Positions 19,930 through 63,216 of a stretch of DNA of 64,000 bases are shown piece by piece (position 1 is the stretch's first letter; the number at the start of each line of letters is the position of its first letter). The DNA is from Eledone cirrhosa (Eukaryota). Location of the stretch: assembly GCA_964016885.1 (NCBI GenBank), contig OZ024742.1, positions 213,714,001 through 213,778,000 on the forward strand, written 5' to 3'. The translations under genes and the position numbers were made by a program. The notes under the pieces were generated by a model. The model searched no databases. It worked only from the letters and a program-made list of their open reading frames with translations, and was not told the DNA's origin.

Positions 19930-20346
19930 TTATCTGTTGTAAGCCAAAAGAAAATAAGCAACGAGTGAACCACCAAATAGGAACAAATAGCAAACGAAGA
20001 ACAGGCTATTGAGCACCATTGCTAATCTCTTCCACTCATCAATTACTTTCTTCTCTGCTTCTGCTTCATTGGTTTTCTTGGTATAGTCATTGGCAATTCT
20101 TCTGATATTAGCAATATCTGTTTCTATTTGTTGGTATTCTGATCTCGGAGATAAACTTTCTGGTAAATCATCCTCACAGAGATGATCTTTGTCAAGTTCT
20201 CCTTGATTCTGACTTATTTTTGGCAGTGAACAATAATTATTGATGCTGAGCTGGAAGCTGTTTTCTTCTGTAATCAAATGTTGAGATCTGTTTTGTTTTA
20301 CCATGTTCTTCAAACAAAGTATTGGTGCAAAGAAATCAAACACAAT
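19930..20346 (-). CDS. nAChR-like subunit terminal exon: MX, intracellular loop, MA helix, M4, stop
   Basis: tttcacag acceptor, phase 0; IVFDFFAPILCL...VIDEWKRLAMVLNSLFFVCYLFLFGGSLVAYFLLAYNR*; EWK.LAMVL matches the nAChR pre-M4 motif. Confidence 0.93.
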   Translation of the reverse strand: MVFDFFAPILCLKNMVKQNRSQHLITEENSFQLSINNYCSLPKISQNQGELDKDHLCEDDLPESLSPRSEYQQIETDIANIRRIANDYTKKTNEAEAEKKVIDEWKRLAMVLNSLFFVCYLFLFGGSLVAYFLLAYNR

Positions 20347-21489
20347 CTGTGAAATAGATAGAGTTGTATGGAAATACTTTAGACTATACTCTATTAGATT
20401 GTCTATGCATTGTATTTGTTTGTTTAAAATATATTACATTAAGAAATTATAGATTGAAATTATAGATTCTCAATACAAAAGAGTATAAATTTGGGTATTA
20501 GATACAATTGAAAAAGACAGCTGACAGAAAAACTTAAAAAAGCAATATGTTAACATGACAAACAGTTCTGTAATTTGTCAATCAATGTAATACTCTGGAA
20601 AAGGACACAATGGTTTCAAAAATGTTCTGGGTATAAGAAAAATTCAATAAAGGAAAAGAAAATGGTATATATTGATTCTATCAAGAATGGTAGGCTGAAG
20701 AATGTGAATAAATAATGACAGTGCAGTGATCATTTTTAAACATTCATCTATGATTTAAGATATATCCTATATGGTCATTTGAACTGCATAAACCCCTTAA
20801 AATAGAAAGACTAAATGGATGATGTAGTTCCATACATTGAAAGAAAAAAACATTTAATAGTCATAGCTAAAGCAGCTTTGATCATAACACTGCTATATCA
20901 AGGTTGACCTGGGGCTAAATAAAAACAACATCAACTCATTTACTTATCTTTTCCAAATCATATGGAATGTCATCCATGATGGCTCAGAAAGTGTGAGTCA
21001 TATTTATGTTATAAATATTAATTCTGCTTTCACATATAAAAATACTTCTCCAATATATTAGAGCTTTTAAAGATTAAACTTCTACTATTATCATCATGAT
21101 CATCAGTTTTACAACCATTTTCTCATGTTAGTATGGGTTGGATGAAACATTTTATTGGGCAGAATTATAGAGTCAGATGCCTTTCCTGATGCAAAACTTC
21201 ATTTTTTAAAAGAAAGTTACAGGTTTTTGCATGTCTAACTTCTAAGGAGCAAACTCTCTGTTTATGCAGAACATAAACAATCACCATCAGCAATGTTATT
21301 GCTCAGAGAAGAGACAAATGAACACACACACACACATATATATTACATTTTCAACGACTTTTTCCTATGAAAATAGTGAACTATTTATAGTACAACCTCA
21401 TATATATATATATATATATATATATATATATAATATATATATATAATATATATATATAAGAAAAAGAAGTTGAAAATGAATTGAGAGAC

Positions 21490-22290
21490 TTTAAAAAGAT
21501 TTATTAATAATAACTTTACTGGTTTCACGTTTGAATGTTTTTCAAAAGTTAAGTGAGATGGAGATATATGTGTCTATGTGCCCTACATCTGTTATTTCAG
21601 GAAGTTTCTTTCCATTTTGATAACATAAGTGTCTCAGATTGTTATCTGTTTAAAGTACAATTGGACTGGATATGGAAGATCATGTGGTTAGGCATAGAGA
21701 GAGTGCATGTGGGTATAGCGATTTGTCCACTTCATGTGATAACAATAATAGTGGTCATAGTAATTATAATAGTTCCATTACCAAAACGAACAAGTATGTT
21801 ACACGTGCGCATGCGTGTGTGGATAGATCTCCATAAATGTTTCTCATCATAGTTTATTCAGACTTGGTTTGTATTTCTGAATAAATATATTTTATTTATT
21901 CATTCGTGTTTGGTCCGTGGTTTTGTATGGACAAAGATAAAGTGGAAAGACTTGGAATTTGGGGGAGTTATTTGCTGCACATAAGTTTAAATGTCCAATA
22001 AGTCATATCTATCTTGTGGTGTGGTCTCGTAATTGTTGATGGTGAATTTTCATTCTGTTTGTGAGGATTAGTTTGATTTGCTCTATATAATCTTCATTAC
22101 AGCGTTTACATTTAATAGCATATGTGAAATTTTTTGTTGAACAAGTAAAATGATTTTTTACAAAAATGTTTGTCCTAATTTAAATTTATACAAAGTGCCT
22201 TCAATGACAACCACACTTTTTGACTATTGTGGTTAGGTTTGTGGTGGGTAATTTGGCGCTGGTGAGTAGTTTATTAAGAGATCCTGGTTG
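21490..22290 (-). mobile_element. Penelope-like 3' remnant (GIY-YIG and terminal repeat)
   Basis: 21890-22270 resembles the GIY-YIG region at 44490-44920; hammerhead-like motif followed by AATAAA at its end. Confidence 0.7.
21512..21550 (-). ncRNA. hammerhead-like motif with U3/A8 variant core
   Basis: aactt-TTGAAAA-ac(attcaaac)gt-GAAA-ccag-TA-aagtt; 5-bp stem I. Confidence 0.55.
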
Positions 22291-22383
22291 TCCTCAAAGC
22301 ACGCCACACCAATCAAACTCAAGCAAGCAGGAAACTTACCTGCACATTGTGTGGTATGACATGTAAATCACTTCTGGTTAGAC

Positions 22384-22704
22384 CAGATGTTCTCAAACAT
22401 TTTGGGCCACGGCCTGCCTCACGGCTACGTAATACCCTCAGCACCCCCACCCCTATTTCCAGAGAGATCTGCCTACATGCAAATTGTAAATAGTATATAA
22501 TAAATGAAATCGTTAATCTATATATAATAAATAATATAATATATACTATGTATAATTAAGTATTATAGATTTTTTATTTTACTATATTTATATATATGTA
22601 TCATTTGATATTTAGAATACTATTATATCATCTCTACCATCCCCTTAGGCCCTCTTAACGCCCTCTGGGGGGGGGGGGGGTAGCGCCCACTTCGAGAACC
22701 TCTT
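22384..22704. mobile_element. hAT (Charlie-like) MITE
   Basis: TIRs cagatgttctcaaac / cttcgagaacctctt (11/15 match) flanked by perfect 8-bp TSD ggttagac (22376-22383, 22705-22712). Confidence 0.85.
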
Positions 22705-60639: not shown

Positions 60640-61615
60640 GAAGTGGTTACACAACAGTTAGTTCACCATACCGAGAACAATTGTTTCACCTTAGCGGATC
60701 CTCAGCTCGTAATGGACATGGTTATACGGAACAGGAAGGACAACGGTACGAACGCGCATGCGCAGAAGCGGTCACTTCACACAGGTAATACTAAATTGCG
60801 TGCGAGAGGTGTAAGGGAGATAACTGCGAAAGTCCGAAAGTTTCTAGTTGATAAGAAAATTAGGATGTTGTTGTAATTCAATCCGGAGCTTTGTAGTTAT
60901 GTAAGAGGTGTTTCCAGACGTGTGGACAACGTGTGAAGAATTCATTTCTCGTGTTTAGGCAATCATTATTGCGTAATCTCTTTAGAATATTTATTCGTTC
61001 ATCAATACATAGTCCACACGACGGATTGCCCCTTACGTATGGCTTGGACTTAGTGATGGCTTTCCATTGAATGGAGTAGTCTATACTTGAGTCCTTGAGG
61101 GACCATACCATACGTGGCTCGCGAGTTTCGTGGATGAACGTCTGTCCGGGTACCTAAAGGTCGACTGGTGGTTTAGGAAGCGTTCCTTAAGTCGGCCCTC
61201 CACCGTACCCACATAGGATTTGACCTCCTGTGGTTGATTTGGTCGGTTGGAAGTGACCACAGCTTCATAAACTACAGCGGGTGTGTTGCATTGCTGTTGA
61301 AGGGGACAAGCTTCGGGCTTACGGCAAGAGCACCCTGGTGGGTTGTTGCTCTTAGGGTTGTTGGTGATGTGGGCCTTCATATTCTTAGCGCAGGTGTATC
61401 CTAGTTTTACTTTGTGTCGGTTAAAGATGGAGCGGTATTTATGACCTATGGGAAAGTGTCTATCTAAGAGGGCTAGACATTTTTTGCCTACATTGGTTTT
61501 AACGTTGAGAAGGGAGGAGAGAACCAGATAGTTTGTCTATTGTTACGCTTTCTTTTCTCATTGCTGTTATTGTTAGTGGGAGAGTAAGTGATAGGTTGCG
61601 AGAAGCCACTCTTAG
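60640..61615 (-). mobile_element. 5'-truncated Penelope-like (Naiad-like) copy: GIY-YIG plus terminal repeat
   Basis: Close paralog of 25740-26698; CSCRKPEACPL...VVY...YVG...CGLCIDE...RCPH. Confidence 0.92.
60672..60709 (-). ncRNA. minimal type I hammerhead ribozyme motif
   Basis: cgag-CTGAGGA-tccgctaaggt-GAAA-caattg-TT-ctcg; palindromic stem III AACAATTGTT; stem II weak; paralogs at 24559-24596 (-) and 26630-26667 (+, core mutated). Confidence 0.7.
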
Positions 61616-61624
61616 CTAACTGTG

Positions 61625-62058
61625 TAGATATGTATGCATGTATGCATGCGTGCATGTGTATGTAGGTATGGCTGTTATTGTATGTGTGGGTGTGTATGTT
61701 TTGAGTTATATGTGTGCATGTACATATGTTTTGTATCTGTACATGTGTACATGCAGTTATTAGATGTATAATTTTCGGAATGTTTTACATTTATGCACGT
61801 ATGTTCTTTTGGTTCTATAATTTCACAAATTTTTGCCAATAGAGAGAGAGAGTCGGTTTCTAACATACTTACAAGACTCTCTCGTTGGAATTTAATCAAC
61901 ATCAACTAGGTAGATATGTCTGCATGTCTGCATGCATGTGTGTGCAGGTATGGATGTTATTGTATGTGTGATTGTGTATGTTTTGAGTTGTATGTGTGCA
62001 TGTGTATATGCTTTGTATCTGTACATGTGTATATGCAGTTATTAGATGCAGAATTTTA
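61625..62058. repeat. diverged direct duplication of about 150 bp
   Basis: 61625-61775 resembles 61911-62058. Confidence 0.7.
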
Positions 62059-63137
62059 CATATTTTTACTGTTCCATTAATGGATTGTACTTGTAATTTC
62101 CTAACTATGTATATATGTATGGTCGGCGACTAAACCGGCAAACCTACCAAGCATGCTTGATAAGGAGCGTGATTTTGGACACCCTGCAGGATGAAAAACA
62201 AAATCTGTTAAAGGGTGGAGGAACTCAAGAGAGTCAACGGTCAACCAATAATTTTTTTTTTTTTGAGCGAGAGACTCCTAGTCTTCATTAAGATAGTTCG
62301 CTTGGAGAAGGTCATTCTGATATAAAACCTGCGACTTCATTTGCATCCAATGATGTTGACCAGTTCTTTTTGGGCAAATGTATTCGATGTTCAGAGAGCG
62401 GGATTGGACTATGCAAAACCATTCCTCACTTAAAACAGCTTCAAGCACAGGCATCGCTTGTTATGTGACAGTTTTTGTGAGGCATGGCATTGCTGGCTAC
62501 AGGACTAAAAACCCACGTCCATGATGCTCATGCTTAAGTATCAAGCGATGGCGTTACTCGAAATCGAGTTGCAGTCATCATCATCACGTATGTATGTATG
62601 GTGGTTAAACCACTGGGAGTGAAGGACTCCTAGCCTTTGTCAGGACATTCTTCTAGCAGGCAACTCAGGAAACTGGGATGACTCCGACATAAAACCTGCA
62701 GCTCAGTAGTTACCGATGATGTTGATCCTTTCTTCTTTTCAGGTTATAGCTACTGTCGCTCAGAGAGTGGGATTGGCTCAGTGCACAATCTTTCCTCACT
62801 TTAAAAAAAATCTTCACGGACAGCCATTGCACGATAGCATTAATTGATAATTATTAATAATTGTTTCTACTTTTGGCACAAGGCCAGCAATTTTACCCAA
62901 TGCATTACTGGTACTTTATTCTATCGACCCCGGAAGGATGAAAGGCAAAGTTAACATTATTAATAATGTTCGATAATGAGGGGGCAGCCATCATGTACAT
63001 ATGTATGTATGTATGTATGTATGTATGTGAGTGCATGTGTATGTATTTATGTATGTAAGTCAGAATTTAATGAATGTGTTTTGTGAGAGGGATGTAATTT
63101 TGAGGTGTAATGTTGGGATATAACAAAGTGATCTTAC

Positions 63138-63216
63138 CATAGGTACCCACAACACATGCCCATCATGTGATAACATAGTGCGCACAAAAGACCGCTTATA
63201 TCCTGGCTCATTTGCC
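63138..63216 (-). CDS. nAChR-like Cys-loop channel subunit, first visible exon (end of loop A through loop E); 5' exons outside window
   Basis: tttcag|g acceptor, atg|gtaaga donor; reads ANEPGYKRSFVRTMLSHDGHVLWVPM, matching the nAChR 'NAD...G.V.W.P' region; phase-0 join to next exon. Confidence 0.88.

Follow-up and report, generated by a model that had tools for sequence, protein, structure and literature searches.

The 64,000-nt window examined here (G000:C3:213714001-213778000, where G000 is the 3.0-Gb Eledone cirrhosa genome and C3 is contig OZ024742.1) holds five of the eight coding exons of a minus-strand gene for a nicotinic-like Cys-loop receptor subunit. The M2 signature, the degree of transmembrane identity, and the layout of exons suggest that it is related to the PAK/AChRB family of anion-selective acetylcholine (ACh) receptors. 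Judged by its sequence features, this AChRB-related subunit lacks defining traits of the PAK channels, the ACh-binding alpha subunits, and the chemotactile receptor (CR) array alike. The product is probably either an accessory subunit or a receptor for a ligand other than ACh. Our preferred reading, held tentatively, is that it is a PAK/AChRB-derived octopod subunit that has lost most of the ACh cage on both faces and would serve as a nonbinding accessory in a mixed pentamer with a cation-shifted pore.

A first-pass annotation, made from the letters of the window, had proposed five in-frame exons encoding 354 aa with a Cys loop, M1-M4, and a distinctive M2 motif, and all of these are present. 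The joined exons contain no internal stops, and all four introns in the window are GT-AG with pyrimidine-rich acceptors. The five-exon match is not due to chance, because tblastn searches with four octopod ortholog queries independently recover the same exons at 62-93% identity per exon. These searches also locate three further coding exons upstream of the window, with borders read from the sequence; exon 1 was placed by a weak tblastn match (E 5.7, 11/18 residues identical) and a GT donor that keeps the frame. The 5' exons, which the first-pass annotation lacked, are undisrupted and complete a model of eight exons, 471 aa, and 94.3 kb (Table 1), equal in length to the Argonauta protein. The octopod eight-exon gene appears intact. 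Its product has the features of a nicotinic-like subunit, namely, the C150-C164 Cys loop (C-x13-C) and M1-M4. A window exon matches PF02931, and the ortholog matches both PF02931 and PF02932 over the cut-off. The AlphaFold2 (AF2) model of the Argonauta ortholog adopts the nicotinic fold with a mean predicted local distance difference test score of 73, and its top Foldseek matches are nicotinic acetylcholine receptors (nAChRs; E ~1e-29).

The gene is not hidden, as had been supposed, but already annotated in other octopods. Two proteins among 69 candidates were found with exon 5 as the query, O. bimaculoides XP_014777761.1 and Argonauta GAB1597573.1, and a protein cluster adds the O. vulgaris and O. 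sinensis orthologs, giving three Octopus species and Argonauta. Full-length identity to these four octopod orthologs is 72-82%. Their names (alpha-5, alpha-10, and beta-3-like) are all automatic. Canonical alpha5 orthology was considered and rejected; "alpha-5-like" is one of these automatic names, and the best PDB sequence matches of the ortholog are assorted vertebrate subunits (E 1e-41 to 1e-37) with no standout. A phmmer search against 1.84 billion representatives returned, after the orthologs and among the matches listed, two unnamed Logan proteins, P0008 and P0009 (P-numbers are working labels for database proteins and L-numbers for E. cirrhosa genomic loci). Further matches, by names checked for 16 of the 150 listed, are mostly of the "alpha-10-like" type and include named octopus and abalone proteins. 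P0009 led to four more unnamed proteins, P0185-P0188. The unnamed relatives are 30-37% identical to the Eledone gene and have the same intracellular-loop pattern; our guess is that they come from squid or cuttlefish. No closer paralog was found in searches of the Eledone genome, and the octopod gene is single-copy. The ESM Atlas returned nothing beyond generic nAChR clusters.

The relationship to the PAK/AChRB family was examined through the M2 signature, sequence identity, and gene structure. The AChRB proteins are reported to be ACh-gated anion channels that all contain PAK, encoded by three genes in octopus (Courtney et al., 10.1101/2025.04.02.646353). The named relatives of the receptor gene likewise have Pro-Ala-Lys (PAK) before M2. 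Three PAK genes are present in the Eledone genome, at C19:1.31, C3:216.8, and C4:120.7 Mb, and on motif and number, rather than gene identifier, we provisionally take them to be AChRB1-3. Phenylalanines at 8', 11', and 12' of M2 (F8'F11'F12') occur in 13/14 PAK sequences and in 7/8 sequences of the lineage formed by the gene, its orthologs, and the unnamed relatives. Elsewhere, they occur in one of the four members of an unnamed sister group, in none of seven CRs, and in none of 28 other nicotinic-type sequences. From M1 to M3, identity to the C3:216.8 Mb PAK gene is 49%; for other PAK subunits it is 42-47%, and for three CRs 21-26%. All seven introns agree in position and phase with those of the C3:216.8 Mb PAK gene, the first of them judged by the exon 2 acceptor and phase since exon 1 of that gene was not located. 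Four of the five internal exons after exon 2 are identical in size (110/110, 79/79, 370/376, 84/84, and 116/116 nt), whereas exon 2 measures 164 nt in the receptor gene and 194 nt in the C3 PAK gene. Of 25 other nicotinic-type exons scored in the Eledone genome, 24, including those of the other two PAK genes, lack the phase-0 intron that immediately precedes the Cys loop, and the C3:216.8 Mb PAK gene is the only other carrier; this scoring covered part of the nicotinic genes of the genome and left out L043 and L064. The 84-nt M2 exon makes the M2-M3 loop one residue shorter, a feature common to the octopod C3 PAK protein and not to its snail and clam orthologs. Linkage was dropped as evidence of origin, as the O. 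sinensis ortholog apparently lies together with two PAK genes and the Argonauta ortholog with a different PAK gene.

The gene thus appears to be an offshoot of a known family rather than a separate pentameric ligand-gated ion channel lineage, because F8'F11'F12' is confined mainly to the PAK sequences and its own. Its nearest named relatives are likely inhibitory, chloride-passing ACh receptors. The first-pass suggestion of a separate orphan lineage therefore stands for an uncharacterized lineage and falls for a separate channel lineage. Likewise, the M2 motif described there as alpha9/10-like is real but corresponds to the PAK/AChRB signature, whose bearers are often labeled "alpha-10-like" by NCBI; an alpha9/10 affinity in the vertebrate sense was rejected, since the motif maps to PAK-family sequences. 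In common with the AChRB/PAK proteins (octopus AChRB1-3, the Lymnaea AChR-B group, and Schistosoma SmACC), the gene has the M2 phenylalanines, 42-49% M1-M3 identity, the seven introns of the C3:216.8 Mb gene, and a place in the same or an adjacent clade. It differs from them in having S-D-K for P-A-K, in the loss of the cage and vicinal cysteines, and in an ectodomain that changes several-fold faster.

The binding site and pore were mapped by alignment to PAK and cation-channel subunits and checked against human alpha4 and alpha6 alignments. The cage labels (TyrA, TrpB, TyrC1, TyrC2, and TrpD) follow the convention of PMC4006026 and, in part, general usage. Four of the five cage positions are changed (TyrA to F115, TrpB to E171, TyrC1 to C212, and TrpD to L77), and TyrC2 is kept as Y219. 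F115, E171, C212, and G214 belong to the principal face and L77 to the complementary face. Loop C does not contain the YxCC motif; it reads C212-I-G-C215, with G214-C215 at the position of the vicinal pair. These observations support the first-pass view that the product is not a canonical ACh-binding alpha subunit. A C212-C215 disulfide may replace the vicinal pair, and the AF2 ortholog model puts both cysteines of the CxGC motif in the loop that joins strands 198-210 and 219-230. Immediately before M2, the linker at -2'/-1'/0' is S-D-K in Eledone and A-D-K in the orthologs, so that Asp occupies -1' in place of Pro-Ala. An acidic residue at -1' is found in 8/8 sequences of the lineage and 0/14 PAK sequences. 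Pro-Ala is described as marking anion selectivity and Glu as marking cation selectivity (PMC4055736). The Asp at -1' can be read as cation-type, and the pore is predicted to pass cations.

Trees were built from rows selected among the top phmmer matches of 340-640 aa together with exons from the Eledone genome, and they contain no named rows for squid CRB1, DopC, or vertebrate alpha9/10. A single clade unites the gene with its orthologs and the unnamed proteins, at 100/100 support in both the 30-row and 34-row trees. A larger clade of this lineage, the PAK family, and one unnamed group has a Shimodaira-Hasegawa-like approximate likelihood ratio (SH-aLRT) support of 96 in a 62-row quick tree. 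The same clade reaches ultrafast bootstrap (UFBoot) 80 and SH-aLRT 94 in a careful 30-row tree with CRs, and SH-aLRT 99 and UFBoot 99 in the 34 rows without CRs. In every free tree, the lineage lies in the same clade as the PAK family or an adjacent one. A position as sister to either of the other two octopus PAK genes was rejected under LG (p 0.0005 and 3e-7); under the posterior mean site frequency model, one is rejected (p 0.026) and the other is not (p 0.086). The phylogeny proposed in the first-pass annotation, with nAChRs and CRs together, thus places the lineage in or beside the PAK family, although the approximately unbiased (AU) tests reject neither a nested position, nor a sister position, nor a grouping with CRs.

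These data lead us to the accessory-subunit reading. The gene would have originated by duplication of the C3:216.8 Mb PAK gene and then lost most ACh-cage residues on the principal and complementary faces. The product would co-assemble with other subunits as a nonbinding pore liner, most plausibly with AChRB paralogs, and the Asp at -1' would push the mixed-pentamer pore toward cations. We favor this reading because the pore is constrained, the principal-face loops are eroded and variable, and TrpD is absent. Among four octopods, 20/21 positions of M2 are invariant, compared with 73/89 for M1-M3, 79/115 for the intracellular loop, and 121/194 for the ectodomain. Conservation is lowest in loop B (5/12) and loop C (8/19), each 42% invariant, and highest in M2. 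The TrpB position itself is Glu in three of the octopods and Ala in Argonauta. The first-pass annotation had spoken of a rebuilt binding site; this goes beyond what the sequence shows, since such a pattern reads equally as decay. Weak conservation of loops B and C alongside strong conservation of M2 would be easier to reconcile with an accessory role than with reconstruction of the site. Octopus AChRB2 and AChRB3 are reported to give no homomeric currents (Courtney et al., 10.1101/2025.04.02.646353), which leaves room for a partner and makes them the obvious candidates; either may pair with the product of this gene. The vertebrate nicotinic subunits alpha5, beta3, and muscle beta1 are accessory subunits that line the pore and form no agonist site. 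They offer a working analogy only and are not orthologous to the gene.

Several observations weigh against this reading or its derivation from the C3 PAK gene. All four octopods have the CxGC motif, Y219, and F115 unchanged, which could mark a retained ligand site, and the published hallmark of cation selectivity is Glu rather than Asp in the account cited above (PMC4055736). Shared introns can be ancestral. In vertebrate alpha7, an intron lies one base from the pre-Cys-loop site, and the intron at that site may therefore be ancestral as well. The M2-M3 deletion also occurs in L040 and L046, two unrelated genes of the same genome, as well as in one of the alternative C4 PAK exons; its value as a unique shared character is weakened by this homoplasy. 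In the 34-row tree, the branch that joins the lineage to the C3-PAK subgroup as its sister has an SH-aLRT of 96 but a UFBoot of only 33. Three AU tests of a nested position versus PAK monophyly, run on short searches, reject neither (p 0.20/0.63, 0.29/0.78, and 0.60/0.60, respectively). PAK monophyly has the best likelihood in all three, the nested tree being worse by 15.5, 12.8, and 0.8 log-likelihood (lnL) units, while in a separate comparison a tree nested next to the C3 PAK gene is 4 lnL units better than the free tree. The AU tests also do not reject a clade of the gene with CRs (p 0.46, 0.57, and 0.15-0.51); CR branches are very long.

In the main rival reading, the gene encodes an orphan cation channel gated by an endogenous ligand of its own other than ACh, with a new pocket built from a loop C closed by CxxC, from F115 and Y219, and from a loop-B residue that is either acidic or small. 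We consider it somewhat unlikely. The invariance of C212, G214, C215, Y219, and F115 in 4/4 octopods and the strong conservation of the pore are consistent with such a channel, as is the precedent of DopC, a dopamine-gated, nicotinic-like cation channel of octopus reported to have switched ligand (10.1101/2025.10.31.685654). However, DopC is described there as keeping YxCC and the aromatic cage through that switch, and the gene has neither its YSCC loop C nor its SWTY loop B. The key loop-B position also varies (E, E, E, and A), and conservation is at its lowest in loops B and C. A related and rather improbable scenario combines these elements: a cephalopod duplicate of an inhibitory ACh chloride-channel gene reverted to a cation filter and then, in octopods, gained a CxxC-closed pocket for a new ligand.

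The sensory and CR-related readings appear less likely than the accessory and orphan readings. The described CRs are reported to be intronless and clustered (PMC13174522; PMC9068888), as the first-pass annotation had it, and in the Eledone genome they form a single-exon cluster at G000:C11:23.6-23.9 Mb, where L022 matches CRT1 at E 1e-146. Identity to the gene is 18-25% across 20 single-exon CR-type frames, 19 of them from the C11 array and 1 from C23; the gene itself has seven introns and lies on C3 with no neighbor of its kind. A typical CR, also set aside in the first-pass annotation, is ruled out by gene structure and identity, not by the AU test. CRs are further characterized by sensory expression in suckers and by their response to poorly soluble compounds. 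The gene and the CRs (CRT1, 8EIS/9E6B; CRB1, 8EIZ) have in common the nicotinic-like fold, an acidic -1', and the loss of TrpB and the vicinal cysteines, which are missing in 7/7 CRs. In contrast to the intronless CRs of the C11 array, the gene is an intron-bearing single locus with a long intracellular loop, a different M2, and a long loop C with CxxC.

That the gene is a peripheral chemosensory receptor drawn from AChRB stock independently of the CRs is improbable. Cage loss and a fast ectodomain (68-75% identical among orthologs, where the PAK paralog reaches 93-95%) recall the CR pattern. However, the lack of a closer paralog in genome searches is unlike the CR array, and cephalopod groups reported at the same tree position come from salivary-gland transcriptomes, if they represent the same gene. 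Less probable again is an intron-bearing sister or parent lineage of the CRs. The AU tests leave a CR clade unrejected and both have Phe at 8', but the grouping appears in none of the three free trees, the CRs have a GEK-type linker with the F8'F11' signature in 0/7, and a clade of the lineage plus CRs as sister to the C3 PAK gene is rejected (p 0.009). The quick tree places the CRs with other intron-bearing genes (C11:41.9, C27:22.06, and C7:64.07 Mb). Three very divergent, intron-bearing nicotinic-like genes, L036 and L037 (G000:C11:41.94 and 41.97 Mb) and L038 (C27:22.06 Mb), have TrpB replaced by Thr, no vicinal cysteines, and a GEQ linker; L036 and L038 group with CRs at SH-aLRT 85 in the 62-row quick tree. 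These loci are better candidates for intron-bearing CR relatives than is the receptor gene. A separate nicotinic-like gene at G000:C18:33.80 Mb (L041-L042) has TrpB replaced by Met, keeps the vicinal cysteines, and carries an intron in M2.

A low-affinity ACh- or choline-gated subunit is very unlikely. The gene keeps Y219, and its five unnamed relatives in the alignment retain YxCC (5/5) and mostly TrpB (4/5), but the octopod genes have lost TrpB, TyrC1, TrpD, and the vicinal pair. A pseudogene or chance splice model is scarcely credible, for although the Eledone model is known from genomic sequence alone, it has eight exons with no stop or frameshift, canonical splice sites, and high identity to four orthologs, and the O. 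bimaculoides annotation holds two isoforms that differ in the last acceptor.

Table 1. Coding exons of the receptor gene and retroelements in its introns (window coordinates unless prefixed)
Feature	Position	Strand	Remarks
Coding exon 1, 76 nt	G000:C3:213828227-213828152	(-)	ATG and predicted signal peptide; outside window
Coding exon 2, 164 nt	G000:C3:213813224-213813061	(-)	up to loop D, TrpD position = Leu77; outside window
Coding exon 3, 110 nt	G000:C3:213811971-213811862	(-)	loop A, TyrA position = Phe115; outside window
End of intron 3 and route to exons 1-3	63217..64000	(-)	continues beyond window edge
Coding exon 4, 79 nt	63138..63216	(-)	loop E; followed by phase-0 intron just before Cys loop
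Coding exon 5, 370 nt	51009..51378	(-)	Cys loop C150-C164, loop B, loop C, M1, M1-M2 linker S261-D262-K263
Coding exon 5, sites	51009..51378	(-)	TrpB position = Glu171; loop C = C212-x-G-C215, Tyr219
Coding exon 6, 84 nt	49475..49558	(-)	M2 and M2-M3 loop
Coding exon 7, 116 nt	40959..41074	(-)	M3
Coding exon 8, 417 nt	19930..20346	(-)	intracellular loop, MA helix, M4, TAA stop
LINE-type retroelement, intron between exons 4 and 5	52702..58468	(-)	reverse-transcriptase domain and repeat coverage
Rearranged and fragmentary copies of related LINEs, intron between exons 7 and 8	34297..39545	(.)	tblastn 35-88% to frames of the first LINE

The introns in the window had been described as more than 43 kb of transposon-filled sequence. 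They are indeed repeat-rich, but 43.3 kb is the span from exon 4 to exon 8, and the four introns sum to 42,221 nt. At least 57% of intron bases match interspersed repeats when compared within 468 kb, versus 34% for the flank at 1-19929, and tandem repeats account for 6%. Two intronic stretches derive from long interspersed nuclear elements (LINEs; Table 1), both of them passengers rather than parts of the receptor. The first contains an uninterrupted 748-aa reverse-transcriptase frame at 55976-53733 (PF00078, E 2e-22; PF13966). Of 10 intronic frames scanned, two match a reverse-transcriptase family, one of them above the cut-off. An additional reverse-transcriptase-like element with several frames lies downstream of the gene (6090-8823, minus strand), and a 120-nt unit is present in three head-to-tail copies, 99% identical, at 59246-59606, with related sequence near 19300.

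Other nicotinic-type genes and proteins were also noted. The C4 PAK gene has two tandem M2 exons of 87 and 84 nt, 40 nt apart and each flanked by AG/GT (L061:863-949 and 990-1073; G000:C4:120900362-120900572), which are likely mutually exclusive and would give two M2-M3 loops. The intracellular loop encoded by the C3 PAK gene (L060, G000:C3:216.87 Mb) is long and Gly/His-rich, and the gene's Argonauta ortholog P0182 has this loop as well. At least nine nicotinic-type genes, the receptor gene included, lie within the 19 Mb of G000:C3:198.1-216.9 Mb. An unnamed protein group (P0033, P0048, P0057, and P0083) combines a partly PAK-like M2 with Asp-Arg at -1'/0' and lacks vicinal cysteines; PAK may have been lost a second time in this group.

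The gene is already known in public annotations under automatic names and is uncharacterized by function. No paper naming accession XP_014777761 was found in the full-text literature, and the gene was not found in the supplements of PMC10338036 (4 files) or PMC6896357 (7 files, one a scan that was not searched). The 41 channels that Courtney et al. screened may include it. A venom-gland preprint reports "PSG unknown 4 and 5" as uncharacterized cephalopod groups sister to AChRB (10.1101/2025.06.15.659772), a position in common with that of the lineage, and the gene may belong to them. Divergent nAChR-like subunits are common in molluscs, with 13/33 oyster alpha subunits reported to keep all principal sites (PMC6896357); because of this, and because the gene is already annotated, the finding alone is of moderate weight. 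Of the three octopus AChRB genes, two are reportedly silent as homomers, and a related subunit without an ACh site and with an acidic filter is a candidate partner that could alter the sign or size of cholinergic currents. If the gene instead gained a pocket for a new ligand after reverting to a cation filter, it would represent a second, CR-independent path by which a neurotransmitter receptor became an excitatory receptor of orphan or sensory type, with intermediates in living relatives. The lineage itself forms a natural series, from relatives with an intact cage and an acidic -1', through one that has lost TrpB, to octopods in which the cage is gone, so that it can be tested whether selectivity changed before or after the ligand was lost.

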